Shown here: in pieces, positions 4,415 to 40,506 of the stretch
Position numbering within the stretch: the stretch's first letter is position 1
Layout: each line of letters opens with the position of its first letter
Assembly (NCBI GenBank): GCA_021814005.1
Contig: JAKAJC010000004.1
Location: forward strand, 230-64,229
Direction: 5' to 3'
Length of the DNA stretch: 64,000 nt
DNA from: Candidatus Micrarchaeota archaeon
GTDB lineage: Archaea; Micrarchaeota; Micrarchaeia; Anstonellales; Anstonellaceae
The notes under the pieces: generated by a model
Databases searched by the model: none
What the model was told of the DNA's origin: nothing
Seen by the model: the letters and a program-made list of their open reading frames with translations, nothing else
Program-made: the position numbers and the translations under genes

Positions 4415-4438
4415 AGAGATACCCCTAATTTACCGATT

Positions 4439-9623: not shown

Positions 9624-9645
9624 CGATATCAGTGTTGCATCGTCA

Positions 9646-16141: not shown

Positions 16142-16144
16142 TGG

Positions 16145-20100: not shown

Positions 20101-21423
20101 CCCAACGGCCGCGCGTTCGCCTCCTGTGCCGCCTGCCCAACCGACTGCCGCTATGATTATCTCACTGCCGCGGGCATCAGGCGCCCAAACAGCCAGGACA
20201 ACTACTGCGGCTGGAGCTTCACCGCGCCAACCGCATGCTTTTCCATCACGCTGGAGCGCCTGCGCGGCAGCGACATCCCAAGCGTGAACAACACCCGCTA
20301 TTATTCGTGCACGCAGACCGAAGCAGGCCAATACCACTGGGTGCGCACAAGCAGCGGCGTTGACAACAGAAGCGACAGCGGCTGCAACGCGGCCTGGTAT
20401 CCGATTGGCCACTTCACCAACCAAACCGTTGCCAACCTCGCGTGCGGCCCAGGCACTTTCAGCAACACCACGAGCGATGTCTACTCATGCACGCCGGTCC
20501 ACAAGTATCCGGCCCTCGACAGCCTTGTCACCTCTTCGGGCGGGCCTTCCGATTACCGCGAATGCGGAGACATAAGCGTCAACGGCCAGAATCCGAACAA
20601 CAACCTCTGCGGCGCGCGCACGTTCGGCGGCGCAAGCGTCCAGCTGTGCAAGAACGACCGCGCGGCAACAGATTCGTGCTTTGCCCACTTCAACGCGCTC
20701 GCGGTTGCCTGCCTGCCGATTACCGGCGTGGTGAATGATTACACAGACCCCGCCAACAATCCGACCAAGGCGGAGGAGAGCTGCCAGAACTGCCCGCTCT
20801 TCTGCCGCATAGACAACGGCGGCCAGATATGCTCGCCGTGGTCTGCCGGCGGCGAGCCTCCCAAATGTGATTTCCCCAACCAGTGCGACCGGCGCACTGC
20901 TCAGGGCAGCGGCTACTGCGGCATCCCGTCATCAGCATTCAAAATTGGCCAGGGCTGCGCGAATTACACCGGCGGCTCCGGCGTGGGCTGCCCCGCCCGC
21001 TGCCGCGTTTCACTGCCGTCCGGCAACGTGCCATACGGCTGCTCGGGCGGTGAAATCGGCAACGCATGCTCGCCCGGCAATCTTGATTCGGCATGCACCG
21101 CCACCCCGCCCGACAATCCGTGCGCAGGCTGCGGCGAATGCGACACCGACTGCCGCTCCACGCCTTATGTGCGGCAGAACTGCGACGACCTCTGCCTGCC
21201 GACAGACTTTGCCACCGGAGCCTCGCCCATCACGCCCAAGGACCTTTTGATGTCGTGGGAAGGCGCGTCGGGCAACCCCGACTGGCGCTCATTGGGCTCT
21301 TTGGGCATCGCCGCTTTCCTGCTGCCGATTCTCAACATCATACTCACTCTTGCATTCATCCGCAGCCTCTCGCCGGTGCTGGGCGGCGACATCGAGATTC
21401 CGGGAATACTCAAGGTGCTGTGA
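17194..21423 (+). CDS. Operon gene 5: 1409-aa paralog with a ~1020-aa Cys-rich ectodomain inserted before the last TM
   Basis: ATGA start/stop overlap with gene 4. Carries ALVYMAGI...LARTEI, LRSLFFTRKLGGMMLAAGAGLLLVWP and the C-terminal VLGGDIEIPGILKVL. There are 80 Cys between codons 318 and 1334 (hand count), and many N-x-S/T sequons. Confidence 0.88.
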   Translation: MRNENENPARRESGVCFAPVNTAPAGFLPLHAPHVFLFLLCLLCISPIIFSQNTTIQPVLTAQNATFGFDNYVRATLAAAALMAAIMALVYMAGIFFQSEDAKQLARTEILQTALSVIIVAFLLAILLGVDTGLRLTSAEIVSPCVGRTLPASITSATLLNQYAFCYAQGLNEMAIAQGDTTIRKSVTFAKKAYRMEGFQTDLWWLLYGGLTRRPDANLRLDSEIMGQEFTLLTSFMVSLQGQLAFLQYIVPALAPALLFLGVILRSLFFTRKLGGMMLAAGAGLLLVWPATYLLSWFTLQVAVFGPSVMGEEPGSTCPTSCKILPPAGYNISTANPDSWGSPPAGSPYATGAISAKQMASAGGSSIAPDIGDEAAWKLRGVQTCYPQYNYTEDKTTGTRTYTLPAGYSSSVPVQSSDKCPSECRFLPTPTDLNCDLAACDNIPIACKAIRAMNLSTSPLPNPPDNCNSCTSCPAFCRTILPQVKYANPANPAAGVVPTTNANSCSANPGNATLCPLYCRSYLHTDASNTISYSTPDCQAACQATLDNKKDAATSQPDCMLGIPAAMMECNTPNVCGPAMNLEAAIASGRTDLCPIECRVNFNSSGTEDRYKDPTFNQYCTGSGKFGTACDTQCPSTCKVKASAENAALPNSFSLGVPNSFIVSTGAGSVLCAAAPTFTNGQMDSSVNGQCARCPLSCRLRNPSSILDLDNNHSTYFFSQSHYALTCNYRNTTPIILYSGACRNSTFPPGWLAFASEDPSGISLSQIGRGPPECAPTARIYLRMDSSDPLCPLFLAPIPPYIKDGTLSNDPSNSAVSAIIPPNTDVSAECSTPDAQKYCLGKDPQGQPYCDISCQPDRAVNGPFYCHLTDLYSPLSSIPDNTQRCGACSSPAADNSKGPQCQVMLTSGSTLYLPKGCDPSCAPGSLDTATGIILNPDTDPKSRASCGGFCYPRLPIPSCSAYAPASTTNPNGRAFASCAACPTDCRYDYLTAAGIRRPNSQDNYCGWSFTAPTACFSITLERLRGSDIPSVNNTRYYSCTQTEAGQYHWVRTSSGVDNRSDSGCNAAWYPIGHFTNQTVANLACGPGTFSNTTSDVYSCTPVHKYPALDSLVTSSGGPSDYRECGDISVNGQNPNNNLCGARTFGGASVQLCKNDRAATDSCFAHFNALAVACLPITGVVNDYTDPANNPTKAEESCQNCPLFCRIDNGGQICSPWSAGGEPPKCDFPNQCDRRTAQGSGYCGIPSSAFKIGQGCANYTGGSGVGCPARCRVSLPSGNVPYGCSGGEIGNACSPGNLDSACTATPPDNPCAGCGECDTDCRSTPYVRQNCDDLCLPTDFATGASPITPKDLLMSWEGASGNPDWRSLGSLGIAAFLLPILNIILTLAFIRSLSPVLGGDIEIPGILKVL

Positions 21424-21428
21424 GAAAA

Positions 21429-22718
21429 ATGGCGCGAGCTCAAAAAACAAAAACAAAAAATGAAAAAGAAAACGGCTGCTCCCGTTTCGCGAGCATTGGC
21501 TTCGCGCGCGCCAGCCCTGCGCGCGCCAGCCCCGCGTTTTCTTCGGCGCGCTCGAGCGCGCTGCGGCATTTTGTTTTCTTGTTTATTACGGCCTCTCTGT
21601 TCCTTATCCCATCAATTCACGCGGCCGCCGCATGGCAGCCGGCAGTTTTCGCAGCCGTGCTCATCTCCGTCTCCGTGCTGGCAGTCGTTTACATGATTGT
21701 AACCGTGCTGAAATGGGACAGGTTCAAGGGCATCATAAAAGACGAGCTCGGCCAGACGTTCATCACATTTCTTCTGGTGGTCCTGCTTGTTGCAGGCATG
21801 TCCGAAGGCGAAACCCAAGCGTCGAAACTTGTGTGCGGCATTTCCGGCATGCCAGACTCCGGCTTCTGCCCGACTCCCGCGCGCGACACCATGATTTTCT
21901 GCAAAACTGCCGGAAGCAATCCCACCACATGCCCCATCACCGGCAGCCAGCCGCTCAACAACTGGGCCCTCTCGCTCAACACCAACGCGCAGTCTCTCCT
22001 GAGCACCAACCTGCTCGCCAAGGCGCTGGAGTTCAACCAAAAACTCGGCTATGTGAGCTCGGTGTCGGGCTTCTGCAACATGCTTGGCGTGGGCTTCTCC
22101 ATCGCCGGCTGCTCCACTTACGGCGTGCTGCGCGGACCCGTCGGCCAGCTGCTCAACGCAATCGGCATCGGATTGATGGATTTGCAGGCAGAGCGGATTC
22201 TGCTCCAGCTCAACACTGCCGGTTTCACGCTGAGCCTGCTTTTGCCGCTTGGCATCCTGCTCCGCGCGCTGCACTGGACCAGAAAGGCGGGCGGCACGCT
22301 CATCGCCCTCGCACTCTCGCTCTACTTCATTTTCCCCGCGTCGCTTTTGCTTGGGCAGGCGATGGCAGACCAGTTCATCAAGACGGGCAGCCCGTATCAG
22401 GCCCTCGCAGCCGGCCCGACGTTTCCGGCAATGAGCGGCAGCTACAATCCGCTCGACACATCTACCGTCGAATGCAATCCATTTGACCCAAGCACCGGCA
22501 AGATGGTCAACACCATGAACAGCTTCCTCACGCGCAGTCCTTCCGACCCCGCGAACGTCAAGAATCCATCCACCATCGACCAGATTCTTTTCGTTGTGAT
22601 GATACGCAACCTGATGATAACCATCGTGGCGCTCACAGTCACCCTCTCCGCCACGCGCGTGCTGGGCCACGCCCTTGGCGCGGAAATCGACGTGTGGGGC
22701 ATTGCGAGGCTGAGCTAA
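21429..22718 (+). CDS. Operon gene 6: 429-aa polytopic membrane protein, paralog family member
   Basis: The track ORF (21093..) overlaps gene 5. The ATG at 21429 lies 5 nt after the gene 5 stop, with AGGTG upstream. Carries AVVYMIVT...IIKDEL, LRALHWTRKAGGTLIALALSLYFIFP and the C-terminal ALGAEIDVWGIARLS. Confidence 0.85.
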   Translation: MARAQKTKTKNEKENGCSRFASIGFARASPARASPAFSSARSSALRHFVFLFITASLFLIPSIHAAAAWQPAVFAAVLISVSVLAVVYMIVTVLKWDRFKGIIKDELGQTFITFLLVVLLVAGMSEGETQASKLVCGISGMPDSGFCPTPARDTMIFCKTAGSNPTTCPITGSQPLNNWALSLNTNAQSLLSTNLLAKALEFNQKLGYVSSVSGFCNMLGVGFSIAGCSTYGVLRGPVGQLLNAIGIGLMDLQAERILLQLNTAGFTLSLLLPLGILLRALHWTRKAGGTLIALALSLYFIFPASLLLGQAMADQFIKTGSPYQALAAGPTFPAMSGSYNPLDTSTVECNPFDPSTGKMVNTMNSFLTRSPSDPANVKNPSTIDQILFVVMIRNLMITIVALTVTLSATRVLGHALGAEIDVWGIARLS

Positions 22719-25700
22719 ATGGAGAAAAAGAACCGGCCGCATTCACCGAAGTTCTCATCGCCATCGCCCATGCCGCACCTTGCGCTGTTATTTCTCTTGG
22801 CCGCAGTTCTGCTCGCTCCATTTGTTTCGGCAGACATAACCGCAACAATTGATTACAACAGCGCCCCTCCCCCGCCCGCCTCGCCCTGGCTCACCATAAC
22901 TCCGATGACTGTGGGCGTGAGCGCCGACTGCGGCACCATACCGCCCTGCGTGCCGCCGTTCAGAATCAATTTCCAGTTCGTCTGCGGCGGCACCCCTGTG
23001 CAGGAAACATTCACAAACGTCCCGCCGGCCTCCCGAACAGCATACACCTATTATCCAAACTCCGACCCCGCATGCCGCGAGCCGACGCCGCTGAATTCCA
23101 TAATCACAATCACCGACACTACTGGACAATCATTTTTCACGCAAAGTTTCCCCGTAGCTCTGGCAAATGGTACAGACACCACTCCGCCGGGCATCTCGTG
23201 GAATCCCGTGCCGCCGCCAGAATATGATGCGGGCGCAACCATCAGCTTCGGCTTCACAGTCACCGACCCTGACGACAACACCAACGCGATTCCGACATTG
23301 TATCCAAATGTCGCCACGGCCGAGGTGGAAATCACCGACTTGGGAAACGGCCAGGTCTATGGGCCATATGACATGGGCCCGTTCCCTCCACCGAACGGCT
23401 GGAGCACCCAAGTCTTTCATATAGAAGGCACCCCCAGCGCCGACCACACTGTTGAAATCAACTGCAGCCGCCTCAACTGCGTCGGAGATTTGCAAATAAA
23501 AGTCAGGTCCCACGACCCTGCGGGCCTTGGCATTACCCTGCCGCCAATGATTGTGCGCAGGCGCGGCGGCCTGGTTCTTCCCTCTCCCATATTGGGCATC
23601 ATCCCGCCCGCACCCGTCTGCCCCAACGCGGCCATCCGCGCCATGGCAAACCAGCCGTCTGGCTCCCCTGCAATAGACAGCCATGAATACAGCTGGTCCA
23701 TCACTCCAAATCCTCCGGTGCAGATAGATACTGTGCCCGACACCGCCAAAACGGGCGCCACTTCAGACACATTCGACTGCGCGGCGCGCAACTGCCAGAA
23801 CGGCCAGACCGTGTCAGTAAGCGTGCTCGCCATCGCCGGCGCCCAGCGCTCCCCTCCCAACGCCACCCTGATTCTCGTCGACGGCAGCAGCCTTGACTGC
23901 AGAATGCCGGCAGCCCCGCTTCTCACCAACCAGACAATATCCATCTCGCCCTTCAACGCGATAGTGCTGGCAAACCAGAGCAACAACGATCCGCGAGCCG
24001 TGCTCCACCGCTATGTCTGGACCATGGCCGACGGCACAGTCATCGAATCCCCGCTCATGCCCCTGCCAATCCAAAATGTCACATCAGCTCCCGTGCCCTG
24101 CGCCGCGAATCCAAACCTCTACTGCCCGTCGGGAGGAACCGTCCTTCTCACGGTCTATTCATACACTGCGCAGAATGTGCAATCCCAGCCAGCATTTATC
24201 TCCATCTTAATTCCGGCGCGCTCAGCCCTCAATCCGCCGGTGGTTGTCACCAAGCCCTTCAGCCCGTATGACAACGACACCATCGTGCTTGTTGCAAACA
24301 ACCAGAACGAAGAGGTGGACCGGCACCAGTACCGCCTGCTCATCATCAATGCGGACGGCACTATATACCAAGAAATCGATGCTCCAATCTACGACACTGT
24401 TTCCACAACCGCGGCAGACAAACACACCACCACATCCAAGCCATTCACCTGCACGACAAGCGTATGCAGGGGCCGCTTTGCCAACATAACCGCCCGCGCC
24501 TACAATTCCCTTGGCTGGTCAGACTGGTCTCCCTGGCTGAGCGTCCCATTCGGCCCGCCGCCGATTCCTGCGCCAATACTTGTGCGCATCGACCCGATTC
24601 CACCCGGCAATTCGATGCTGTCAGACATCAATTCCGGACTTGGCGCGCTCCTCAACACCTCGCTTGCCTACAGCTTCACAATAACCCCGCCCGCCGGCCA
24701 GCCGCCGTTCAACGACTATATTCCAACCCTCACAGTCAACGGCGCAGACGCGCCGGTTTCATCCAGCCGCTCGGGCAACAATCTCATCATCACTCTGGCC
24801 TGCACCCCGTCATCATGTCCGAACGGCTCAATCCTCACATACAAGGTAATCGGCGTGCAGGCGGGAGCGAATTCCACTCCCCTGTATTTCTCGCTTGTAG
24901 TTCCGCAGGCGAGCGGCATGCCCGCGCAGGTGGGCGTCATCTGTTCCGGCGCCGAACTGCAAAGATGGCTGCAGGTGATGGCCATCGGCATGATGGCCCT
25001 TCTCGCCCTTATCGCGCTCGTCTATATGATTGGCGAGGCGCTGCACCACCCGCAGCTTTTGGAATGGTCCAAATCAGAAATCGGGCACGTGGGCATGACC
25101 ATCATCCTCTTCTTCCTCATCGTATGGCTGATTCAGTTCCAGTGCAACCTGACGGTGGGCGAATTCCTCAACTGGTCTGGCTCGTCAAACCCCCTCTACT
25201 CGTCAGGCATGACGCTTTCACAGGCAGGTCTCAAATCGCTTGAATGGGGCATCACCCAGACGCGGCTCACCCTCGTGGCCATGCGCTACGAGATGGGAGT
25301 GCTCAACATGCGGGCCACCTATTCCTCCTACTCCACCCAGTTCCCCGGAATGGGCGGCAACGGCTACAGCTTCATGCCCTTCTCGGGCGATTACACCCTG
25401 CTCGGCTCGTTCGGCATGCTCACCAACCTCAACTCCACTTTCCTGCTCGCGCTCCTCTTCCAGCTATTCTCGCTGTTCTTCTTTTCCTCTTCCAGCGGGC
25501 TGTTCATATTCCTCGTGCCGGTCGGCCTCATACTGCGCTCGGTTCCGTTCATACGCGGATTCGGCGGCTCGCTGGTGGCCATCGGCATCGGCTTCTACAT
25601 ATTCTATCCGATTCTGCTTGCCTTCACCGGCCTTCTGCTCGCGCCGCTCTACTCGGGCATTGACTCCACCAGCCAGCTCGGCATCGCCGACGCCTCGCAG

Positions 25701-25991
25701 CTGGAGGCAAAAGAGCTTGCGATTCACACGCCATTCAGCAGCACCGGCCTTGCTGGCGACAACATTTTCAGCTACAATCCGGGCGACCCGTATCCGGGGC
25801 CGCTGATGCCCACCGCCGGCAAGGACTCGCCGCCGAAGCTGGGAATATATTTCAATCTAACTGCCCTGAATTTCCTGCGCGCCATCCTCATTCCGACCGC
25901 AGGGCTGATAGTGACCGTGTCATTTGTGCGCGACCTCGCGGCCATTTTCGGCGAAGAGGTGGACGCGTCGAAACTGATTGCCATGATTTAG
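22719..25991 (+). CDS. Operon gene 7: 1090-aa protein with a signal peptide, a ~720-aa repeat-containing ectodomain, then the paralog membrane module
   Basis: The ATG abuts the gene 6 stop (TAAATG). There are five C-x4-7-C pairs at aa 249/254, 354/359, 461/469, 578/583 and 695/700. The module begins ALVYMIGE...WSKSEI, then LRSVPFIRGFGGSLVAIGIGFYIFYP, with C-terminal IFGEEVDASKLIAMI. Confidence 0.88.
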   Translation: MEKKNRPHSPKFSSPSPMPHLALLFLLAAVLLAPFVSADITATIDYNSAPPPPASPWLTITPMTVGVSADCGTIPPCVPPFRINFQFVCGGTPVQETFTNVPPASRTAYTYYPNSDPACREPTPLNSIITITDTTGQSFFTQSFPVALANGTDTTPPGISWNPVPPPEYDAGATISFGFTVTDPDDNTNAIPTLYPNVATAEVEITDLGNGQVYGPYDMGPFPPPNGWSTQVFHIEGTPSADHTVEINCSRLNCVGDLQIKVRSHDPAGLGITLPPMIVRRRGGLVLPSPILGIIPPAPVCPNAAIRAMANQPSGSPAIDSHEYSWSITPNPPVQIDTVPDTAKTGATSDTFDCAARNCQNGQTVSVSVLAIAGAQRSPPNATLILVDGSSLDCRMPAAPLLTNQTISISPFNAIVLANQSNNDPRAVLHRYVWTMADGTVIESPLMPLPIQNVTSAPVPCAANPNLYCPSGGTVLLTVYSYTAQNVQSQPAFISILIPARSALNPPVVVTKPFSPYDNDTIVLVANNQNEEVDRHQYRLLIINADGTIYQEIDAPIYDTVSTTAADKHTTTSKPFTCTTSVCRGRFANITARAYNSLGWSDWSPWLSVPFGPPPIPAPILVRIDPIPPGNSMLSDINSGLGALLNTSLAYSFTITPPAGQPPFNDYIPTLTVNGADAPVSSSRSGNNLIITLACTPSSCPNGSILTYKVIGVQAGANSTPLYFSLVVPQASGMPAQVGVICSGAELQRWLQVMAIGMMALLALIALVYMIGEALHHPQLLEWSKSEIGHVGMTIILFFLIVWLIQFQCNLTVGEFLNWSGSSNPLYSSGMTLSQAGLKSLEWGITQTRLTLVAMRYEMGVLNMRATYSSYSTQFPGMGGNGYSFMPFSGDYTLLGSFGMLTNLNSTFLLALLFQLFSLFFFSSSSGLFIFLVPVGLILRSVPFIRGFGGSLVAIGIGFYIFYPILLAFTGLLLAPLYSGIDSTSQLGIADASQLEAKELAIHTPFSSTGLAGDNIFSYNPGDPYPGPLMPTAGKDSPPKLGIYFNLTALNFLRAILIPTAGLIVTVSFVRDLAAIFGEEVDASKLIAMI

Positions 25992-26004
25992 GAGAGAACC
26001 TGCC

Positions 26005-27198
26005 ATGACAAAACAAAAAATAAAATCAAAAACAAATTCGGCCCCCATGTCGGGATTGCTTTCGGCCAGCCGCGCACGTTTCACCCTCTCCTCCTTCTTC
26101 CTCACATTCTTCTTCATCCTCTTCCTCTCGTCAATTCTCGCGGCTCTCGACCCCAACGCCCTCACATGGAGCAATCCCGACAAGCTCATGGTCCGCTCGG
26201 CCGGCTACTTCCAGCCAACCTCGCCCAACAGCTGGTACCGCATGGTCATTCCCGCTCTGGCCATCTGCATTTTTGCCAACACTCTTGTCTATGTGTTCGG
26301 GCGCGTTGCGAACGCGCCGCACGTGGTCCAGTTCGCGAAATCAGAATTCTACCAGGTCACGGCCTCGGCAGTCATGATATTCATTTTGGTGGCCGCGGGC
26401 GCGGAATCATTCCGCTATATTCAGGACAGCGGCCTGCTGCCCGCAGGCACCACGACTTTGTGCTACGGACAGGCGATGTCAGTTTGGGATGTGGGGCCGT
26501 TCGGCATAATCCGCTGCAAGCTGCAGGAGAAAATCGACTATGTTGAAGACCTCTACAATCAGGCATGGACTCTCAACGCCAATGTCGAGCCTCTCACCAC
26601 CTATTCGCTCTACCTCTTCAACATACCCGTCTATGTGTGGGACTGGAACACCGCCCTGCATTCGCAGATGGAGCAGGCCCACTTCATAGCCAACAAGCTC
26701 ACGCCAATCGGCATCAGCCTTCACGCGCAATTCATGTTTGCAGAATATCTTGCCCAGAACATGCTCAACGTATTTTTGCCGGTCGGCCTGCTGCTGCGCA
26801 TCTTCCCCATCCTGCGCGGCATCGGCTCTCTCATGGTGGCCATCTCAATCGGCTTCTTCTTCGTGTTCCCCATCGCATACATTTTGATGGACCCGACAAC
26901 CGTGCGGCCCGACCCTGCCACCCTCATACCGGCGGTCAATGACAACAAGGCCAACGTGTGCTACACTTCGTTCAGCGGCATGGTGACCACCTACACCCAA
27001 ATCGCCCCGAAGGTGGCGCAAAAGGCGGAGACGGCCGACATCACCCAAATAGGCTCGGAACTTGCCAAACTGCAGATAGAGGCGTTCTTCTATCCGCTTG
27101 CCGCGCTTGCCACCGCGCTGGTGTTCATCTCCATCGCCACGCCAATCTTGGGCGGCGACTCGGGGGAAATCATGCACTTCCTCACAAAGGTGATATGA
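26005..27198 (+). CDS. Operon gene 8: 397-aa polytopic membrane protein, paralog family member
   Basis: A GGAGAG SD-like site lies in the 13-nt gap after gene 7. Carries TLVYVFGR...FAKSEF, LRIFPILRGIGSLMVAISIGFFFVFP and the C-terminal ILGGDSGEIMHFLTKVI. Confidence 0.85.
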   Translation: MTKQKIKSKTNSAPMSGLLSASRARFTLSSFFLTFFFILFLSSILAALDPNALTWSNPDKLMVRSAGYFQPTSPNSWYRMVIPALAICIFANTLVYVFGRVANAPHVVQFAKSEFYQVTASAVMIFILVAAGAESFRYIQDSGLLPAGTTTLCYGQAMSVWDVGPFGIIRCKLQEKIDYVEDLYNQAWTLNANVEPLTTYSLYLFNIPVYVWDWNTALHSQMEQAHFIANKLTPIGISLHAQFMFAEYLAQNMLNVFLPVGLLLRIFPILRGIGSLMVAISIGFFFVFPIAYILMDPTTVRPDPATLIPAVNDNKANVCYTSFSGMVTTYTQIAPKVAQKAETADITQIGSELAKLQIEAFFYPLAALATALVFISIATPILGGDSGEIMHFLTKVI

Positions 27199-27199
27199 G

Positions 27200-30100
27200 T
27201 TGGGAAAAGAAAAAGAAATTGAGAGCATGCGCGCACAGGCGCCGCACCCGTCGCGGGAATCGGACAGTGGAACAAATATCAATCTGTTGTTTTTGGCCGC
27301 CATCTCCCTCTCCCTTCTCTCCCTCATTTTCCTCTCGGGCTGCGTGCAGCCCAACTCCAACCTCTCCTACGGCGCGTGCTGCATGCAGAGCAATTCGTTC
27401 TATACCTGCCAGGTGCGCACCGACGCCAACGGCACGCAGCAGCGGGATTCGAACGGCAACCTTCTCATCGACGGCTGCGGCCCCTGCATTGCCGTTGCCA
27501 AGAACGGCACGGTTTACAACTCGTCCGGCCCAACCGACGCCGCGCTCTGCACAAACAACTGCAACTTCAAGCAGTCCAACTGCACCAATTTCGACGGCAA
27601 AAACACCTGCTATCTTGTGGACAAGAACATGCAGACAACCAACGAATCGGTGGGCCCGATTTGCATGGCCGCAACCGACCCGTGCGTGCAGAACAACTGC
27701 ACTGCCATGGTTTACGGCAAGCCGCTTCCATCCCCCAAGCGCAGCATCAACTCCCAGTCGGTGCAGCAGTCCAACAACCCGGACGGCAACGCGTTCAAGC
27801 AGGACGCGGCCAACCAGAAGACCGGCCTTGTGGGCCGCATCATGCAGTTCAGCCAGTTCAACACCCGCCTTGCCCGCCTCTTGAAAAGTCCGGACTGGTC
27901 TGTGAACACTTTGCGCCTCGGCCTCCAAGGACAATTTTCCGACTACGACCGCGCGCGTTTCTATCTTCCGCCCTCGGATTACTTCTGCCCGCAAAACAAC
28001 CCCAACGCAATAGTTGACCGCTACACCGCCTATCTGGACGGGTTGAGCGCGCTCCCGCCTTTCCGCTCATACTACACTGTCAATTACGCAACAACCTGCA
28101 GCCCCGGCCACAAAAAACCCCCGTATGGCGGCTGGTATTCAACATGCACCTGCACTCCCTCCAGCCCTCCCGCCCCGCCGTGCGGCAAGGATTTCATGGG
28201 TTCTTCTGCCCTTGATGCAGAAGACATGTGCAACTCCTCCTGCACGAATTTCAGCCGTGTATACAGCACGCCCAATTTCAAGAATCCGCTCAGCCTCTGC
28301 CGCCTCGAGCCGGCATCAGGCGCCAATCTCTCCTACTTCTACTGCGATGTCAATCCCGGGCTCAAGTTCACCATCGCCGACCCGTCCGACCAGCTGCGCG
28401 CATATCTTTCCTGCCAGAAAGCATGCAGTTACAGCCAATACCGCACATGCAGCCAGAATCAGGACCTTCTGACCTACAACGCCAATCTCCACCCCAATAT
28501 TTATTCGCCCTCCAATTGGCCTCCACAAACACCTCCGGCCGGCTCAATCCAGCCGTTCATCGACATCGACCAATATGCCAAGGCGCTTGCGAACGCTTAT
28601 CCGACTCCGACCGGGCCGGCCTGGTGCCCCGCGCTTGTGGCGCTAAGACCCGACCCTGCCAAGGAGGCGGCGATGAAGAATGACCCGCGCAATTACTACA
28701 AATGCCTTCTGCCCGAACCCAACAGTGCCGGCGCCAACCAGACCATAGCCGCCTACGGCATCACGGCCGACCAGTACAACACCACCTATATGAGCGAGGG
28801 CATCAAGCCCGGGCCTGCCGGCGGCAAGGTGTTTGAGTGCACCGGCGGCGGCGACTGCCTCTCCGGCATCTGCGACAAATCCACCTATTCGCGCACCTCA
28901 TGCTTCCTCAAAGACGGCTCTGCGGTTGACTGCGCCTGCCGCTGGGTAACCAATTGCAAGCTCGCGTACCAATGCTCGGGTTACGAAGCCCGCAGCATCA
29001 GAAAAGACCAGTGCGAGGTGAACCTCAACAACTGCCAGGAGGCACAGGGAGGCTCGGACTATCCGGTGCTGATGTGCGAGTACCGCATCAATCCGCTCAC
29101 TCCCCAGACCGCCAATCCGCCCATCCATGGCCTGCGCACCCCCTACGCCTCCAGTGGCAACTATGTTTTCAACGACGGCCGCAACGGCTACGGCATTCTG
29201 CATATCGAGGAATTCAACAAATACATCGACGCTGCGGTCGCGGACGCCGAGCTTGCCACGGTGCAAAGGCCCTCCACTTCGCTCGAATTGTGCCCAAGCC
29301 GCGTGCGCCGGCCATGCGCCTCTTCAACAGAACAGGGCTGCTATGTGAGGAACACCAATCCTCCCGACGTGTCGGTGCTCTGGCAGCATGACGGCGACAG
29401 CGACGTATACCAGAACATACCGGCCTACACGCCCACCTACGACGCCTGCCCAAGCGGCGGCACGCTGTCCAATGTCTCTGGCTGGAAAGACACTCCCAAG
29501 GCATTTGGCGACTATTTGCGCGACAGTTCCTACCCCTCGCGCGAAACATTTGCTCTCGTGCCCACGCAGCAGGCGGTGGCCGGGCCGGGAGGCGCGCATT
29601 TCATCACCACCAGCCGCTATGTGACATGGCAGAATGACAACTGCTATTTCTCGCTCTCCGGCTACACTCTGAGCGGCTCAAAATGTCCGGCAGACCAGGT
29701 CCGCTTCCCGCTCTTTCAGGCCTGCAACATGAGCGTTAATTCCGAATATTTCAACAAAGCCGCAGGCAGCAGGAGCTATCCTTATCAGGACGCGTATCAG
29801 GCCGAAATATACAATGCCCGCGGGCAGGATGCGGCCGGCTCCGCGTTTGATGTGAAATATGTGGACGGCTATTCCTACGACCCAAACAACAACGACACCC
29901 TTTATTCCTACGGCGGCTCTGACCCCTACCGCATAGACAAGACGTGGGCAATCTACAGTTTCGGCGCCTGCCAGGTCCAGCCAAGCACCCCATCCGCTCC
30001 GGCGGTGTCGGGCAAGAGCCCGCCGCCGGTGGTGTTCAGCTACGGCATGTGCCGCTCGTGCGGCACCCTGCTGTCCATGGCTTACCAGCCGGTGAAGGAT

Positions 30101-31864
30101 TCGCCTCTGGCCTTCCCATACGACTTCAACGGCTACTGCCCCTCGGGCTGCAAAAAGTATATTTGGAACGGCTTTCTGAATATGGGGCCGAAATTCTCGT
30201 GGTGCGCCGAGTGCCCGTCCAGCTATCCTGCGCAGACTTTCAGCCAATTCGCAAGAGGCTCGCCGGCAATGTATCCTGATTTCGGATTTCTGGCCGACAA
30301 AATCAACGAATACCAGTCATCCAACATCCTGCCAGTTCTGGATGTGCGCAACTACCACTATGCCGACGGGGGCAGCACTGTTGTGAGAGTGCCGTTCTCA
30401 AATCTCTGCCAGACGCTCGGCGGCAAGAGGGGCGGCTCCGGCGCAATCAACCAAAACGGCGGCGTGTATCAGGGTTCTGCCTGGGACTGCACCCTTCCCG
30501 CACAGCCCGACTGGCTGCTTGCATATCTGAACAAGAACCACTCGGCCGCGGTTCTTATCGTGGCCAACCTGCCCCCCGCCGCAATCGACCCGGCTGTCGT
30601 GCAGGCGGAGGTGGACCGCTCTGCGAAGGCCTGCCCCAACTGCCTGCGGGCGCTCGAATACGTCCCGCTTCTCACGCCTTCCGACGTGACGGGGGCAGAC
30701 TACAATTATCCTTCAGCCCTCAACGACTCGGTGGCTTCATACACGAACGTGTCATTCAATCCCCTGCGCGTCAGCACGCCTCCCGAATGGCTGTCCAACC
30801 GCGGCAAGAAGCCCGACAACGTGCGGCAGGTGGACATGATAGTGCTTGAGCTTGACATGTCCGGCGTGGACATGACCAACGAGACGACCGTGGACAACGC
30901 AGTCCTCGCTTATGTCAACCTCTCGCGCCGCCTGCTGCAGCACGTGGGCTGGCCGACAATTTGGAAAATCAATTACAGATTCGGCATGTACCCCTCCGCG
31001 CTCACCAACGACGTCCTCTACCGCCGCATCATAGCGCACGAGCGCGAGATGACGCTGGCAGGGGTGAGCGGCGTGCTTATGCCGGCCATGGACAACGGCG
31101 ACCCGGACGGGCACATCACCGGCCCGCCCACCGAGCAGTTCGGCCGCCTTCTTCCCAACACCGGCGGCTTGAGCGGCTCGAGCCTTATCCGCGCATCCGG
31201 CACGCCTTTCTGCGCCCTGCAAAATGCCTCGGCCGAATTCCTGCATCCCAAGATGATGGTCGGCACCCAGAAAATTCTGGCCAAGAACAACTGCTCCTGC
31301 CTGCCGTGCAGCGACATGGACCTTCTGGCCGGCAACTGCAACAACAAGTGCTATGACGGGCTGGCCTGCGAGGCTCCCGGCGGCGGCACAAGCGCCGGCA
31401 GCAAGTGCGAGCCATACTGCGTGCGCAACAGCTTCTGCCAAAACAACCTGTGCAACGGCACCCAGATTGGAAGCAAGACAACAACCTGCACCGCCCTGCG
31501 CCCCACCAACCTGCCGCCTGTCTCCTGCGGCGCCAACAACGCCCTCTTCCCCAAGTGCGACGTGCTGGCCGATGCCGCGCTCAAAGACATAGCCGCATTG
31601 CCGCAGGCGCCGCAGCTTATCGGCGGATTGCCGCCGGGGCAGGGCTGCTGCCTGTCGCAGAATCGCACCTATTACACCTACCGCTCTGCCGGTTCTGCCG
31701 CCACTTCAGCAGAGCCGGTCATTTTCCCCGGCTACGGCGCCAACACCACAGACTGCGGGCGCGTGCCGGACCCGGGCGACCCCTATTCCGACCCGTCCGC
31801 AAACTGCGCCGTGCCGCCTGCTCCGCTAAGCAATGTGATGTGGACCTGCACCCCGCCGAGATGA
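27200..31864 (+). CDS. Operon gene 9: 1554-aa Cys-rich secreted protein with a lipobox-like signal (LIFLSGC), lacking the paralog membrane module
   Basis: TTG 27200 lies 1 nt after the gene 8 stop, with AGGTGA 6 nt upstream; ATG 27227 is the alternative start. About 75 Cys by hand count. There is no C-terminal TM and no family recognised. Confidence 0.85.
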   Translation: MGKEKEIESMRAQAPHPSRESDSGTNINLLFLAAISLSLLSLIFLSGCVQPNSNLSYGACCMQSNSFYTCQVRTDANGTQQRDSNGNLLIDGCGPCIAVAKNGTVYNSSGPTDAALCTNNCNFKQSNCTNFDGKNTCYLVDKNMQTTNESVGPICMAATDPCVQNNCTAMVYGKPLPSPKRSINSQSVQQSNNPDGNAFKQDAANQKTGLVGRIMQFSQFNTRLARLLKSPDWSVNTLRLGLQGQFSDYDRARFYLPPSDYFCPQNNPNAIVDRYTAYLDGLSALPPFRSYYTVNYATTCSPGHKKPPYGGWYSTCTCTPSSPPAPPCGKDFMGSSALDAEDMCNSSCTNFSRVYSTPNFKNPLSLCRLEPASGANLSYFYCDVNPGLKFTIADPSDQLRAYLSCQKACSYSQYRTCSQNQDLLTYNANLHPNIYSPSNWPPQTPPAGSIQPFIDIDQYAKALANAYPTPTGPAWCPALVALRPDPAKEAAMKNDPRNYYKCLLPEPNSAGANQTIAAYGITADQYNTTYMSEGIKPGPAGGKVFECTGGGDCLSGICDKSTYSRTSCFLKDGSAVDCACRWVTNCKLAYQCSGYEARSIRKDQCEVNLNNCQEAQGGSDYPVLMCEYRINPLTPQTANPPIHGLRTPYASSGNYVFNDGRNGYGILHIEEFNKYIDAAVADAELATVQRPSTSLELCPSRVRRPCASSTEQGCYVRNTNPPDVSVLWQHDGDSDVYQNIPAYTPTYDACPSGGTLSNVSGWKDTPKAFGDYLRDSSYPSRETFALVPTQQAVAGPGGAHFITTSRYVTWQNDNCYFSLSGYTLSGSKCPADQVRFPLFQACNMSVNSEYFNKAAGSRSYPYQDAYQAEIYNARGQDAAGSAFDVKYVDGYSYDPNNNDTLYSYGGSDPYRIDKTWAIYSFGACQVQPSTPSAPAVSGKSPPPVVFSYGMCRSCGTLLSMAYQPVKDSPLAFPYDFNGYCPSGCKKYIWNGFLNMGPKFSWCAECPSSYPAQTFSQFARGSPAMYPDFGFLADKINEYQSSNILPVLDVRNYHYADGGSTVVRVPFSNLCQTLGGKRGGSGAINQNGGVYQGSAWDCTLPAQPDWLLAYLNKNHSAAVLIVANLPPAAIDPAVVQAEVDRSAKACPNCLRALEYVPLLTPSDVTGADYNYPSALNDSVASYTNVSFNPLRVSTPPEWLSNRGKKPDNVRQVDMIVLELDMSGVDMTNETTVDNAVLAYVNLSRRLLQHVGWPTIWKINYRFGMYPSALTNDVLYRRIIAHEREMTLAGVSGVLMPAMDNGDPDGHITGPPTEQFGRLLPNTGGLSGSSLIRASGTPFCALQNASAEFLHPKMMVGTQKILAKNNCSCLPCSDMDLLAGNCNNKCYDGLACEAPGGGTSAGSKCEPYCVRNSFCQNNLCNGTQIGSKTTTCTALRPTNLPPVSCGANNALFPKCDVLADAALKDIAALPQAPQLIGGLPPGQGCCLSQNRTYYTYRSAGSAATSAEPVIFPGYGANTTDCGRVPDPGDPYSDPSANCAVPPAPLSNVMWTCTPPR

Positions 31865-36311: not shown

Positions 36312-36392
36312 CTATTTTTTTGCTGTTTTGCTGTTGCCTATTTTTGCTATTCTGTTACTGCCTATTGTTCGCTGTTCTGCTTTGCCTGCTTC
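36312..36392. repeat. Adenine-poor T/G/C low-complexity tract with degenerate GCTGTT / TGCCTATT repeats
   Basis: Sequence is ttttttgctgttttgctgttgcctatttttgctattctgttactgcctattgttcgctgttctgctttgcctgctt, in a divergent intergenic region. It generates the artefactual N-terminus MLFCCCLFLLFCYC of track ORF 36320. Confidence 0.6.
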
Positions 36393-36487
36393 AATTCGGG
36401 CATAAAAGAATATATACCCCAATCAGGGCACGGGGAGCGCATAAGCCAATCCATCTCCCTTTTATTCCTCCATGCCTTTATTTTTTT

Positions 36488-37924
36488 GTGGGAAACCCGT
36501 TTGATTTCGACGACACGTCGAGCGTAAAAGTGCCGTCCACTTTGCTCGAGCAGGTAATCGGGCAGGAGGAAGCCGTGCGCCTTGCCCGCGTCATCGCAAA
36601 GCAGCGCCGCCATCTTCTGCTGGTAGGCCCGCCCGGCACAGGCAAATCCATGGTGGCGCAGGCCATCTCCTCTATCTTGCCCAGGCCGACTCAGGAAGTT
36701 TCCGTGCTTCACAATCCTGCCAAACCAGAGCGCCCATTCCTAGAAGTACGCACCCGCCCCCAAATCGAGGAGCAGGTCCGCGGCAGGCCTCCCGCAGGCC
36801 TTCTAATGCCAATCGAGCAGGCGCCCCCCTTTGTGACCGAGCGCCTCGGCTACCGCTGCCACGCATGCAGCCGCAACTCATCTCCAGACGCGCCTCTCTG
36901 CCCGCATTGCGGCGCCGAGAAATTCCGCGGCGGCGCGGGCCCGTTCGATGATTTGGTTGTGGGCCTTGGCGCGCCCGAGCGCGAGGAATCTGTTTCCACC
37001 ACCCGCATAATGGGCGGCAAGGAAGAGCTTGTGGTGTTCGAGCGCTTTGACGACCGCTGCGTGCGCGCGCTTGACCAGAAAGAGCTTTCCAAGCTCGACC
37101 ATTCCGACACGCAGCTGCCGCGCAACATTCTTCTCAATCTTGAGCGCCCCTGCTTTGTGCAGGCGACAGGCGCGTCAGAAACAGAGCTTCTGGGCGATGT
37201 GCGCCACGACCCGTACGGAGGGCATTACCAAATCGGCACTCCGCCCTATTCGCGCGTGGTGGCTGGAGGCGTGCACGAGGCGCACGAGGGTGTGCTGTTT
37301 ATCGACGAGCTGGTCTCTCTGGGACGGCTGCAGCGCCACCTTCTCACCGCAATGCAGGAGCGAAAATTCCCAATCACCGGGCGCAACGCATCCTCAACCG
37401 GCGCGTCTGTGCGCGTGGATTCAGTGCCGTGCGAATTCATTCTTGTCGCGGCAGTAAACACATCCGACTTGCGCAAAATCCTGCCACCACTGCGCTCGCG
37501 CATAGGCGGCAACGGCTACGAGCTGCTCATCAACACCACCATGCCCGACACCGAGGCAAACGTGCAGAAGCTGGCCCAGTTCGCGGCTCAGGAAGTGCGG
37601 CGCGACGGCCGCATTCCGCACGCAAGCCGCGCGGCCGTGGAGGCGCTGGTGGGCGAGGCGCGCCGCCGCGCCAAATCTGTTGACCACGCGGCCGGCCTCA
37701 CGCTGCGCCTTCGCTCTTTGTCAGGCATTCTCAAAATGGCCGGAGACTGGGCGGTGTCAGACACTGCCCCGCTTATCGAGGAAAAGCATGTGAAGCTGGC
37801 GATTGAGCGCGGCAAGCCTGTTGAAGAGCAGATTATGGGCCGCTACGGCAGCGCATACAAGGCCGCCATGTCGGACTGGGGGCTTTCAAACCGCGTGCCC
37901 ACTGATGACAAAAACATCGGCTAG
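36488..37924 (+). CDS. LonB-like AAA+ ATPase lacking the protease domain and the TM insert, with a zinc ribbon between Walker A and Walker B
   Basis: VPSTLLEQVIGQEEAV...LLLVGPPGTGKS (Walker A), ETELLGDVRHDPYGG, GVLFIDE (Walker B), VPCEFILVAAVN and LTLRLRSLSGILKMAGDWA all match the archaeal LonB ATPase pattern. The ORF stops ~35 aa after the alpha-domain. Start assumed at in-frame GTG 36488 and is uncertain. Confidence 0.75.
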   Translation: MGNPFDFDDTSSVKVPSTLLEQVIGQEEAVRLARVIAKQRRHLLLVGPPGTGKSMVAQAISSILPRPTQEVSVLHNPAKPERPFLEVRTRPQIEEQVRGRPPAGLLMPIEQAPPFVTERLGYRCHACSRNSSPDAPLCPHCGAEKFRGGAGPFDDLVVGLGAPEREESVSTTRIMGGKEELVVFERFDDRCVRALDQKELSKLDHSDTQLPRNILLNLERPCFVQATGASETELLGDVRHDPYGGHYQIGTPPYSRVVAGGVHEAHEGVLFIDELVSLGRLQRHLLTAMQERKFPITGRNASSTGASVRVDSVPCEFILVAAVNTSDLRKILPPLRSRIGGNGYELLINTTMPDTEANVQKLAQFAAQEVRRDGRIPHASRAAVEALVGEARRRAKSVDHAAGLTLRLRSLSGILKMAGDWAVSDTAPLIEEKHVKLAIERGKPVEEQIMGRYGSAYKAAMSDWGLSNRVPTDDKNIG

Positions 37925-37947
37925 AAAAAGCCGATTAAGCATTCGGA

Positions 37948-38769
37948 CTAATTAGCCGCCTTTTTCATGCGCCCGGCCCAGGCAGTCTCGCGGGCGCGCT
38001 CTTCTCCGTAAATGTATATGTCCTCGAGCATTTTTTCGCCAGTTTTCACCCATTTCAAAAACGCGCGCTGCTCAGCCCCGTCCATGTACATCGCAGTCTT
38101 GTGCATTATTCCGGTCATGAAATAAATCAGTTCGGCCGCTTTCGGCTCTGGCGCATCAGGATTGTTTTTGAAATACCGCTGGCGGGAAATGGCATCTTCC
38201 AAATCATTGAACCGATAGACAAACCACTCAACCGAAATTGCGAACGCTATGGATTTCACCAGCGCAACCTGCTCCGCGCTCGCCTCTTTTCTCGGACCCG
38301 CTTCGGCGAAAAAGGCCTGATTCTCCTCAGGTGTTCTCTTCATGGCCCGCATGACTGAAGGGCCCCAAAGCACGAGATTCATATATGCCTCGAAGGGGCT
38401 TCCGCGCTTGTGATACAACACCTGAGGCGAGTCGGACAGCGCGCCAAGCCATTGCTTCATGGGGCCGGTGATTGATTCCGGCGCCTGCCCCTCAAACGGC
38501 TTTATTTCTTTAATCAATTCAAACCACTGGCTGGCTGCGGCGCCAAATTCGCGGATTTGCTGCATCCGATATTCTGAAACCGCTATGCCCATTTTTGATT
38601 TGTCTATCTCCGGCGCCAGCCGTTCTATCTTATGGCGTCCCCTGCGGTTGAGGCGAATCGGCACAATCTCCGGCGTCAGCCGTTCAATCTTATGGAGTCC
38701 ACTGCGGTTGAGGCGAATCGACGCAATGTCAAGCTTGCCGCTCGGCGTGGAGTTTATCGCTTTTCGCAT
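37948..38769 (-). CDS. Hypothetical protein (273 aa) with an N-terminal duplicated 20-aa motif
   Basis: Start moved from 39084 to ATG 38769, since the upstream part overlaps the herA-like start and promoter. ATTAAAAA lies 24-31 nt upstream. No family recognised. Confidence 0.65.
   Translation of the reverse strand: MRKAINSTPSGKLDIASIRLNRSGLHKIERLTPEIVPIRLNRRGRHKIERLAPEIDKSKMGIAVSEYRMQQIREFGAAASQWFELIKEIKPFEGQAPESITGPMKQWLGALSDSPQVLYHKRGSPFEAYMNLVLWGPSVMRAMKRTPEENQAFFAEAGPRKEASAEQVALVKSIAFAISVEWFVYRFNDLEDAISRQRYFKNNPDAPEPKAAELIYFMTGIMHKTAMYMDGAEQRAFLKWVKTGEKMLEDIYIYGEERARETAWAGRMKKAAN
38606..38725. repeat. Two tandem 60-bp units (~90% identical), in frame within CDS 37948..38769
   Basis: Unit 1 (38606-38665) and unit 2 (38666-38725) align with ~6 mismatches. 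They encode IRLNRxGxHKIERLxPEI twice. Confidence 0.85.
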
Positions 38770-38809
38770 GTTGTTTACTATGGTTTTTGTTGTTTTTAAT
38801 AGCAGAGGG

Positions 38810-38834
38810 GCGGAAAAGCGCCTCCCATCTCTTT
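38810..38834. repeat. 25-nt direct repeat, copy 1 (GCGGAAAAGCGCCTCCCATCTCTTT)
   Basis: Perfect copy of 38911-38935. Lies 10 nt from the minus-strand TATA (38793-38800). Confidence 0.85.
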
Positions 38835-38843
38835 CCGAACCGC

Positions 38844-38867
38844 GGAGGGGGGCTTTGGCCCCCCTCC
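38844..38867. other. GC-rich perfect hairpin (10-bp stem, 4-nt loop) centred between the two 25-nt repeats
   Basis: GGAGGGGGGC-TTTG-GCCCCCCTCC. Confidence 0.8.
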
Positions 38868-38910
38868 CCAGTTTGAGGTTCTTCCTGACCCTCCCCCCAC
38901 GAATATTTGA

Positions 38911-38935
38911 GCGGAAAAGCGCCTCCCATCTCTTT
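38911..38935. repeat. 25-nt direct repeat, copy 2, abutting the herA-like TATA
   Basis: Perfect copy of 38810-38834. Its 3' end merges into CTTTTTATTG (38932-38941), 21-30 nt upstream of ATG 38962. Confidence 0.85.
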
Positions 38936-38961
38936 TTATTGTTCACGACGTAAAGCGAGAC

Positions 38962-40506
38962 ATGGTTTCCGGCCCAACCACCTCCCCTCTTCCCGCTTCC
39001 GCGCTGGGCACTGTCATCTCCACTTTCGAGGGCACCCCCAACACGGCCGAATTTCATTTTGTCATCCAGTCGGGCGACGTGCACAAGGGCCAGTTCGTGC
39101 AGGTTGTCACCCCTTCCGGCCCTGTCCTTGGCTCGATAACCGAAATCTCGCGCGCCAACCGCTATTTCGAGCGCGCCGAATCTGTTGCAGAATACGAGCG
39201 CCTTGGCGTGCTATCATCGCAGTTCCCCACAACCGAATGGGAATACATGGTTGCGGTGGTGCGGGTGCAGGGCGTGCTCAACGGCGCGCACATGGGCCGC
39301 TGCTCCATCCCCGTCGCCCCCGGCGCGGCCGTTTCGGCAGCAACAGAGGAGCAGCTCAAATCTTTTCTTGGGTTTGACGATTCGGGCCTTCATGTGGGCA
39401 CAGTGGCCTATCATACGCTGCCAGTGCGCCTTGGTTTGGGCCGCCTTTTGCAAAAGCATCTGGCAATTCTGGCCATGTCTGGCGCAGGCAAATCCTATCT
39501 TGCCTCTGTTCTAATCGAGGAGCTGCTTGACCGGCCGGCAGCCAGCGGCCGCCTGGCCGTTGTTGCGCTTGACCAGCACGGAGAATATGTTGGCTTCAAA
39601 GATTCAATTTACCGCGACCGCGTCACCGTGGTGCCGGGCAAGAAAATCCGCATCGGCCTTCGCCATCTCTCAGCCTCCCATCTGGCCGAATGGTCTGAAA
39701 TGTCATCCACCGCGCGCCGCGCTCTTGACAAGCATGTGGCTGCCCTCAAGGCCGAGATAAAAGAAAAGCAGGAGCCGGTTGGCCTCTCCGAATTGATTGA
39801 GCGCGTGCGCGACGATGCCGACCTCAACAAAAAGGAAAATGTGCGCGGCCCCCTTCTTGCCGCGCTCGAAGAGCTTGAGCATCTGCACCTCATAGGCACA
39901 ACCGACACCCTCAAACTTTCCGAGCTGATAAAGCCCGGACATCTCATAGTGCTCGACCTTTCCGACATTGACGATTTGCGCAAAAAGCAGATGATTGTCG
40001 CATACTACGGCCGCAAACTGTTCCGCCAGCGCAAGAAAGGCCTTATCCCGCCCTATGTCATGCTGGTGGAAGAGGCGCACAATTTTGCGCGCGAAAAGGC
40101 CGAGCGGCGCAACGCGCTTTCAAAATCCATGATTGAAACCATTGCGCGCGAGGGAAGAAAATTCGGCGCAAGTCTTTGTCTCATCACCCAGCGCCCCGTC
40201 CAATTGTCCACAACCGCCCTCTCGCAATGCAATTCCAACATCATTTTGCGTGTAACAAATCCGTTCGACCTCAAGCACATCGGCGAATCATGCGAGGGCA
40301 TCGACTCGCACATGCTTGACTCCATCACCTCATTGCGCGTGGGCGAGGCCCTTGTGGTGGGCGAGGCCGTGGGCGCGCCCATCTTTGTCAAGGTGAGGCA
40401 GCGCAAAAGCAAAGTTGTGGCGCGCGGCGAGTCTTTGGAAAAGCTGGCAAAAGAATTTGAGGAAAAAGACAAAAGAAAAGAGGACGAGATTGAGGCATTT
40501 CTCTAA
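38962..40506 (+). CDS. HerA-like ATPase (DUF87/COG0433, FtsK-HerA superfamily)
   Basis: N-terminal barrel pattern (GTVISTFEGTPNTAEFHFVI...GQFVQVV), Walker A LAMSGAGKSY, Walker B HLIVLDLSD and VMLVEEAHNF, in 514 aa. Confidence 0.85.
   Translation: MVSGPTTSPLPASALGTVISTFEGTPNTAEFHFVIQSGDVHKGQFVQVVTPSGPVLGSITEISRANRYFERAESVAEYERLGVLSSQFPTTEWEYMVAVVRVQGVLNGAHMGRCSIPVAPGAAVSAATEEQLKSFLGFDDSGLHVGTVAYHTLPVRLGLGRLLQKHLAILAMSGAGKSYLASVLIEELLDRPAASGRLAVVALDQHGEYVGFKDSIYRDRVTVVPGKKIRIGLRHLSASHLAEWSEMSSTARRALDKHVAALKAEIKEKQEPVGLSELIERVRDDADLNKKENVRGPLLAALEELEHLHLIGTTDTLKLSELIKPGHLIVLDLSDIDDLRKKQMIVAYYGRKLFRQRKKGLIPPYVMLVEEAHNFAREKAERRNALSKSMIETIAREGRKFGASLCLITQRPVQLSTTALSQCNSNIILRVTNPFDLKHIGESCEGIDSHMLDSITSLRVGEALVVGEAVGAPIFVKVRQRKSKVVARGESLEKLAKEFEEKDKRKEDEIEAFL

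Follow-up and report, generated by a model that had tools for sequence, protein, structure and literature searches.

A probable lipid-anchored, cysteine-rich surface protein with a glycosidase-like barrel fold, encoded by the last gene of a conserved operon of Micrarchaeota

Glycoside hydrolases (GH) of clan GH-A are built on a (β/α)8 barrel in which the acid/base glutamate ends the strand β4, usually as part of an Asn-Glu pair, and the nucleophile glutamate ends the strand β7. Lipid-anchored proteins represent another widely distributed group of surface molecules that are predicted to be prevalent in the DPANN archaea, where the archaeal lipidation enzymes AliA and AliB, now identified, occur "with some gaps" (PMC12462473). 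These two enzymes correspond to arCOG02177/02178. Among the DPANN archaea, the Micrarchaeota depend on a host, and the molecules devoted to their surface and host contacts are largely unknown. Their surface-layer (S-layer) protein SLP_Mh is an abundant protein of ~100 kDa, almost devoid of sulfur amino acids and containing TIGR01567-like S-layer domains (bioRxiv 10.1101/2021.04.28.441871), and cryo-electron tomography of Micrarchaeon ARM-1 revealed a 21-nm barrel-shaped "docking platform" located in the envelope of this cultivated symbiont, beneath the S-layer, the components of which were not identified (PMC11329633). The present work deals with g9, the last of nine genes (g1 to g9) of an operon, g1 and g2 being putative members, carried by a stretch of DNA from Candidatus Micrarchaeota archaeon (assembly GCA_021814005.1, contig JAKAJC010000004.1, positions 230 to 64,229 of the forward strand), the whole of which, 64,000 nucleotides in length, is referred to as the window. 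Neither the signal for anchoring nor the fold of the barrel is of a new kind in the g9 protein; what appears new is the protein family itself, a barrel that seems to be split and lacks the catalytic pair, an extreme predicted disulfide content and the fixed link to six membrane paralogs.

On balance, the available data favour the view that g9 encodes a lipid-anchored and heavily disulfide-bonded surface protein, possessing a glycosidase-like barrel core devoid of the catalytic residues usual for this fold, and that it constitutes the last gene of a conserved envelope operon of Micrarchaeota. As defined by ORF (open reading frame) reading, sequence analysis and homolog search, the coding sequence of this Cys-rich lipobox protein extends from 27200 to 31864 on the forward strand, starts with a TTG codon and terminates with a stop codon at 31862-31864. 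The resulting protein of 1554 aa contains 25 N-X-S/T sequons and exactly 75 Cys residues (4.8%), a number previously estimated at about 75.

Modelling of aa 1010-1350 with AlphaFold2, using a 14-sequence alignment, yielded an α/β structure in which six β/α units were counted (predicted local distance difference test, pLDDT, 79.9; predicted template modelling score, pTM, 0.77). Since aa 205-285, where conservation is highest over the whole protein, display a strand-helix-strand-helix pattern, the stretch aa 170-1350 was modelled in turn with a 45-sequence alignment (pLDDT 77.4, pTM 0.77), and eight candidate barrel strands were recognized at positions 214-216, 239-242, 1044-1051, 1118-1123, 1149-1158, 1213-1219, 1253-1258 and 1289-1294. 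The best Foldseek matches, GH79 and GH10, are weak; the top 60 fold matches consist exclusively of glycoside hydrolases and transglycosylases, including the GH72 enzymes Gas2p and Gel4. The models thus support an ectodomain built around a (β/α)8 barrel with the predicted fold of clan GH-A. This barrel would be split, the strands β1-β2 (together with the helices α1-α2) being contributed by aa 205-285 and the strands β3-β8 by aa 1020-1345, with an insertion of ~735 aa in between. The initial annotation had suggested a possible central α/β barrel located in a Cys-poor stretch (about aa 1050-1330) and recognizable from the segments ILPVLDV, AAVLIVANL, VDMIVLELD and GVSGVLMPA. All four segments are indeed strands in the models and the fold is barrel-like, but the extent of the barrel has to be revised, since only six β/α units occur there and two strands probably come from aa 205-285. 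Similarly, the Cys-poor region exists but aa 1050-1330 holds four Cys residues (1070, 1097, 1145 and 1148), none of which varies in the 14 close homologs, and the longest Cys-free run of the protein corresponds to aa 1149-1337.

The catalytic machinery of clan GH-A could not be recognized in this barrel. With the strands numbered as proposed from the models, on which the assignment of β4 and β7 depends, β4 of g9 ends with ...IVAN (A1122, N1123) and lacks the acid/base Glu, position 1122 being occupied across the family by Asp (22 members), Ala (11), Gly (5), Glu (5) or Ser (2). The strand β7 reads TIWKI, with K1256-I1257 at the position expected for the nucleophile Glu, and across the 45 family members no conserved acidic residue occurs at 1255-1259 and no conserved Glu pair is found at the C-termini of the strands. 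Among the same 45 members, D1048 is the sole position of aa 1028-1350 occupied by at least 80% of Asp or Glu, and the only predicted strand end of aa 1010-1350 that reaches the conservation thresholds used. Conserved polar residues concentrate instead in the 236-278 block (N236, R239, D248, D250, D260, D273, R274 and Y278), which in the models would fall just past β2, on the face usually occupied by the ligand sites of TIM-barrels. Searches of the PDB with g9 and with its barrel region (phmmer, profile hmmsearch) returned nothing other than spurious coiled-coil matches, no match rose above noise when the nine proteins g1 to g9 were scanned against Pfam and NCBIfam, and six distant members of the g9 family were devoid of Pfam matches. 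By sequence, g9 thus falls in no GH family of CAZy or Pfam, as judged from Pfam, NCBIfam and the PDB. As modelled, the resemblance of the fold to clan GH-A is supported but membership as an active enzyme is not, and the catalytic, glycan-active domain suspected earlier finds no support in its canonical form.

Since neither the acid/base Glu nor the nucleophile Glu of canonical enzymes is conserved, the barrel most likely serves as a scaffold or as a pseudo-glycosidase that binds glycans. The preferred reading is that of a glycan-binding pseudo-glycosidase, whose likely functional site, to judge from conservation, consists of the Asp/Arg cluster formed by N236, R239, D248, D250, D260, D273, R274, Y278 and D1048. 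Its main rival is a non-canonical enzyme: g9 would be an active glycan-processing hydrolase or transglycosylase, using an unusual site on the GH-A-like barrel (e.g., D248, D250, D260, D273 and D1048) to remodel the surface glycans of the cell itself or of its host. The exclusive occurrence of glycoside hydrolases and transglycosylases in the top 60 fold matches speaks for such an activity, all the more as it includes the glycosylphosphatidylinositol (GPI)-anchored, Cys-rich GH72 enzymes Gas2p and Gel4, and so does the conserved acidic/basic cluster predicted after β2 and at the end of β3, at usual active-site positions of TIM-barrels. However, the two Glu residues of the GH-A mechanism, on β4 and β7, are absent from g9 and unconserved in the family, no sequence match to a GH family was obtained, and an active enzyme appears unlikely, although it fares better than the other alternatives.

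A purely architectural protein is a still less probable explanation. In this case the barrel would have nothing to do with glycans: g9 would protect the cell as a coat, support the S-layer by association with it or act as a spacer in the envelope, and its TIM barrel would provide no more than a stable scaffold for Cys-rich decorations. The absence of a conserved catalytic pair, the Cys-rich nature of most of the mass of the protein and its location in a conserved, structural-looking operon without any detected enzyme or ATPase are all in line with this idea. Against it, the top-conserved residues are polar or charged and grouped in one block close to the predicted barrel strands, a distribution typical of a ligand site and less so of a scaffold, and the known S-layer protein of Micrarchaeota is a different and Cys-poor protein.

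The glycan-binding pseudo-glycosidase favoured here would be exposed at the cell surface by means of a lipid anchor. The hydrophobic segment of g9 (aa 24-51), preceded by R/K/E-rich residues, ends with the sequence L45-S46-G47-C48 (nucleotides 27332-27343); hydrophobicity, conservation and Cys parity together designate positions 27200-27343 of the forward strand as a Sec-type signal peptide, in which a charged n-region precedes an h-region of ~21 residues closed by a lipobox of the [LVI][ASTVI][GAS]C type with a conserved Cys. The protein possesses one other hydrophobic segment, short and internal (1116-1134), which is modelled as a β-strand, and it terminates with ...WTCTPPR, without any C-terminal transmembrane (TM) helix. 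All 14 close homologs retain both G47 and C48 and, more widely, a Gly(-1)-Cys(+1) pair closes an otherwise unconserved hydrophobic segment in 44 out of 44 full-length family members. A PROSITE-style lipoprotein pattern is satisfied by 38 of these 44 members; five of the six failures result from a Pro at position -2 and the sixth, P0013 (L-S-G-C), from a Gln at -4. The n-region contains Lys or Arg in 35 of the 44 members, none of which displays a twin-Arg (Tat) motif. In addition, 38 of 43 members, g9 with its 74 among them, possess an even number of Cys residues past that of the lipobox (binomial p = 1.2e-7), as expected if one Cys is reserved for the lipid and the others pair as disulfides. 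A CC pair occurs within about 10 residues past the lipobox Cys throughout the family. These features suggest that Cys48 is the lipid-attachment residue and provides the membrane anchor once the signal peptide is cleaved, and that the remaining 74 Cys residues form some 37 disulfides. The lipoprotein signal and the absence of a C-terminal anchor described in the initial annotation are thereby corroborated, as is the conservation of the N-terminal Cys on which that proposal depended, but the suggestion that g9 could be a secreted component needs correction, the protein being probably anchored and not released.

It is hardly probable that g9 is a type II membrane protein with an uncleaved signal anchor and a Gly-Cys pair of structural value (disulfide partner or packing) instead of a lipidation site: the h-region is long and could span the membrane and some members possess a Pro at -2, but the strict retention of Gly-Cys at the end of an otherwise variable segment, the fact that the other Cys residues are even in number in most members, which suggests that the lipobox Cys is no disulfide partner, and the predicted richness of DPANN archaea in lipoproteins (PMC12462473) all speak against it.

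Following the signal peptide, the predicted mature protein of g9 comprises five regions, all encoded by the forward strand. The N-terminal Cys-rich region (aa 49-204; 27344-27811) starts with PNSNLSY..CC right after the lipobox and contains 12 Cys residues up to aa 167, followed by a Cys-free linker. An N-glycosylation sequon N-L-S/T occurs there inside PNSNLSY (aa 54-56; 27359-27367), six residues past the lipobox Cys; most close homologs retain it, unlike P0012-P0014, which diverge furthest among the 14. The most conserved block (aa 205-285; 27812-28054), recognized from conservation and from the model, carries the strand-helix-strand-helix pattern and all the conserved residues of the 236-278 cluster. 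The Cys-rich insertion located between the two parts of the putative barrel (aa 286-1019; 28055-30256) amounts to ~735 aa with 38 Cys residues. It contains a conserved FECxxxxDCxSGxCD motif with an invariant E546, accompanied by the other conserved polar residues D552, S555 and R565, and was modelled confidently over much of its length, the confidence being low for the stretches 633-680, 701-750, 765-778 and 853-879. The Cys-poor α/β region (aa 1020-1345; 30257-31234), with its six modelled β/α units, forms the main part of the GH-A-like barrel, and the C-terminal Cys-rich region (aa 1346-1554; 31235-31861), delineated by sequence analysis and conservation, contains 19 Cys residues and no hydrophobic anchor. 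No internal repeats were detected in g9 by self-BLAST.

The g9 family consists of proteins that had not been annotated so far, and appears to be confined almost only to metagenome-assembled genomes (MAGs) of Micrarchaeota. Fourteen full-length homologs of 1351-1603 aa share 26-46% identity; none of them is named or contains a Pfam domain, and those with a taxonomic label all come from Micrarchaeota MAGs. When HMMER was run exhaustively with the Cys-poor region as query, it returned 55 cluster representatives, 24 of which have E-values below 1e-30, and a second, word-indexed homolog search with the full alignment added no new members. The 14 full-length homologs and 55 cluster representatives argue against g9 being a chance ORF. 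The proteins with the barrel domain are ~1070-1760 aa long (short or truncated entries and one 3049-aa protein being excluded) and share its relative position, and neither a stand-alone enzyme nor any other architecture with this domain occurs among the 55 representatives. The 3049-aa match is a repeat protein and is probably spurious. Scanning the species-representative genomes with the 14-sequence alignment yielded 12 loci, ten of them from Micrarchaeota/Micrarchaeia and two from an "uncultured archaeon" assembly. A distant member, P0032 (RLG25807.1), is carried by an 11-kb contig labelled "Methanosarcinales archaeon", for which a binning error or a rare transfer is possible; besides the two "uncultured archaeon" loci, all other labelled members that were checked belong to Micrarchaeota/Micrarchaeia. 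The window itself is archaeal, with genes for NMD3, DUF2070, Rrp4, the proteasome alpha subunit, GatD/E, the thermosome and Kae1, and three tRNAs. A "CysRRep" preprint that mentions Micrarchaeota turned out to be unrelated to g9.

In the operon, g9 is preceded by six paralogous genes for polytopic membrane proteins, g3 to g8, which cover positions 14975-27198 of the forward strand and were recognized by BLAST paralogy and synteny: g3 (14975-16141), g4 (16145-17197), g5 (17194-21423), g6 (about 21420-22718), g7 (22719-25991) and g8 (26005-27198). Each of their products carries an L-G-[GA]-[DE] motif at the C-terminus, just past the last TM helix, and none has a relative in Pfam, NCBIfam or the PDB. 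The g5 protein (1409 aa) possesses an ectodomain and 85 Cys residues over its whole length, and the g7 protein (1090 aa) a large ectodomain. With its single N-terminal hydrophobic segment, g9 does not belong to this membrane paralog family: the g3-g8 proteins are mutually similar, g9 gave no BLAST match to any of them, and it shares neither a profile-profile match (hhalign) nor a common domain with the ectodomains of g5 and g7. Its description as a protein without the membrane module is therefore accurate. The genes g5-g6-g7-g8-g9 are collinear with one-to-one orthology in all eight loci examined, g9 always occupying the last position, and a comparable layout surrounds a very distant member of the g9 family. 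This fixed order and one-to-one orthology imply that the paralogs predate the radiation of the lineages concerned. The g8 family comprises 26 homologs, has no Pfam or PDB relative and, when its members were scanned individually against Pfam (E <= 1), gave no consistent family. Neither an ATPase nor a known enzyme was detected in the operon by the Pfam and NCBIfam scans of its nine proteins.

The g5 ortholog of the CG10 Micrarchaeota MAG (PFCD01000015.1, around positions 198-4675 of the locus) appears split into two ORFs of 1290 aa and 264 aa; a second assembly of the same organism has one gene of 1524 aa, and the split is probably due to an assembly frameshift in the NCBI record. Upstream of the paralogs, g1 and g2, which may belong to the same operon, span 9535-14971 of the forward strand. 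The g1 protein (9535-13956; 1473 aa) consists of an N-terminal hydrophobic segment and a large Cys-poor ectodomain, and the g2 protein (14033-14971; 312 aa), without hydrophobic segment or family match, ends with a tail very rich in Lys, Pro and Ser (…KTKSSKSKSSARKPAAKKKKPERGA) and may act as a cytoplasmic partner of the membrane proteins. Tandem VirB6 paralogs occur in Rickettsiales; a VirB6/TrbL-like identity for g3-g8 received no support from Pfam, NCBIfam or PDB searches. A mobile-element origin was also rejected, several MAGs having the operon at a conserved position beside core information-processing genes, either those of the proteasome/exosome or NMD3/DUF2070.

The junction between g8 and g9 is particularly tight. 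The TGA stop codon of g8 (27196-27198) is separated by one base from the TTG of g9 (27200), and a Shine-Dalgarno-like AGGTGAT (27188-27194, forward strand) lies within the C-terminal coding end of g8. The codons for the conserved K-V-I C-terminus of g8 make up this motif in AAGGTGAT (27186-27202), so that protein conservation and the signal for translational coupling coincide. The public annotation of g9 (P0001, 1545 aa) starts nine codons downstream, at the ATG 27227. Two distant homolog loci (around position 10000) display AAGGTGATATGA at this junction, directly ahead of an ATG or a TTG, another homolog locus reads AAAGTGATTTGA+ATG (around position 10000), and one homolog locus also uses a TTG start. 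Because the junction recurs in homolog loci, one of them with TTG, the TTG start was accepted over the downstream ATG. The start codon, the strong Shine-Dalgarno sequence and the coupled expression advanced in the initial annotation can thus be retained, and the conservation of the junction across loci favours translational coupling between g8 and g9.

Taken as a mechanism, these observations suggest the following sequence of events. The g9 protein would be translated by coupling, as the final product of a fixed gene set comprising six ancient membrane paralogs, and its signal sequence points to export by the Sec pathway. Cys48 would then be lipidated and the signal peptide cleaved, and the ectodomain would fold oxidatively, forming some 37 disulfides, with N-glycosylation predicted at its 25 sequons. 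Synteny and coupling suggest that the lipid anchor holds the protein on the outer side of the membrane, where it would be a peripheral subunit of an envelope complex with the g3-g8 products. Finally, the degenerate barrel might recognize a ligand, probably a glycan, by means of its conserved Asp/Arg site, which is speculative.

Several points weigh against this scheme. The Pro residue at -2 in five family members is non-canonical with respect to bacteria, five of the 43 members have an odd number of Cys residues, and the alignments are shallow, with 14-45 sequences. Lipidation, cleavage of the signal and disulfide formation are deduced from sequence features, the association of g9 with the g3-g8 products from synteny and coupling, and the recognition of a ligand, probably a glycan, through the Asp/Arg site is a speculative proposal.

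With these reservations, the g9 family and its fixed operon offer a concrete candidate for a lineage-specific envelope system. As a very large predicted archaeal lipoprotein with ~37 expected disulfides, g9 lends itself to testing the lipidation pathway recently discovered in archaea, and, if the barrel does bind host glycans, it would provide a molecular handle on host recognition by DPANN archaea. It is tempting, as pure speculation and with very little probability, to imagine the operon as an envelope machine of Micrarchaeota for host interaction, for which the 21-nm structure of ARM-1 would be one candidate, and g9 as its outward subunit reading host glycans via the degenerate barrel.

Some other genes of the window deserve mention. 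A second lipobox-type ORF (7966-8745, reverse strand; MLKFLFLISLIFVGFIFIGC...), located between the gene for the proteasome alpha subunit and the exosome gene cluster, encodes a protein of 259 aa with 4 Cys residues past the lipobox Cys and no Pfam match; its presence is in line with the lipoprotein reading of g9. On the same strand, divergent from the operon side, an ORF at 50-4177 encodes an unannotated giant protein of 1375 aa with only 4 Cys residues, which gave no Pfam match and whose first 200 residues contain no clear signal peptide. On the other side of g9 (36320-40506), a gene for a LonB/Mg-chelatase-like AAA+ ATPase (36320-37924) is followed by an unannotated ORF of 378 aa (37948-39084, reverse strand) and by a gene for a HerA/DUF87 ATPase (38962-40506).

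With respect to the known systems, an S-layer protein of the SLP_Mh type was rejected as an identity for g9, which contains 4.8% Cys and matches no S-layer domain in Pfam or NCBIfam. The closest parallel for its N-terminus is found in the bacterial Lgt/Lsp lipoproteins and in the archaeal AliA/AliB lipoproteins of Haloferax volcanii, with which g9 shares the charged n-region, the h-region and the [L/A/M/V]-[A/S]-G-C sequence (PMC12462473). Like other lipobox lipoproteins, the members of the g9 family combine an invariant Cys with a Sec-type precursor, but some of them differ by the Pro at -2. In size (~1500 aa) and in Cys content (74 Cys), the predicted mature g9 protein far exceeds the lipoproteins generally known. 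The nearest folds to its barrel are those of clan GH-A hydrolases, such as GH5 mannanases (e.g., 1rh9), GH53 galactanases (e.g., 6gp5), GH10 xylanases, GH26 and GH79. With respect to these, g9 shows 5-14% identity and no sequence-profile match, its two catalytic Glu positions are unconserved, and its modelled barrel is apparently interrupted past β2/α2 by the insert of ~735 aa. The fungal GH72 glucanosyltransferases Gas2p and Gel4 are lipid (GPI)-anchored enzymes of cell-wall remodelling with a Cys-rich module and thus resemble g9 in their overall organization, a likeness that comes without evidence of common descent; their GPI anchor is C-terminal and their catalytic Glu pair is kept, whereas g9 possesses an N-terminal lipobox and has not kept the pair. 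Finally, beta-Klotho, a GH1-like pseudo-enzyme unrelated to g9 in sequence and in organism, illustrates how an inactive glycosidase fold may act as a receptor, and a comparable binding role is what we infer for g9.

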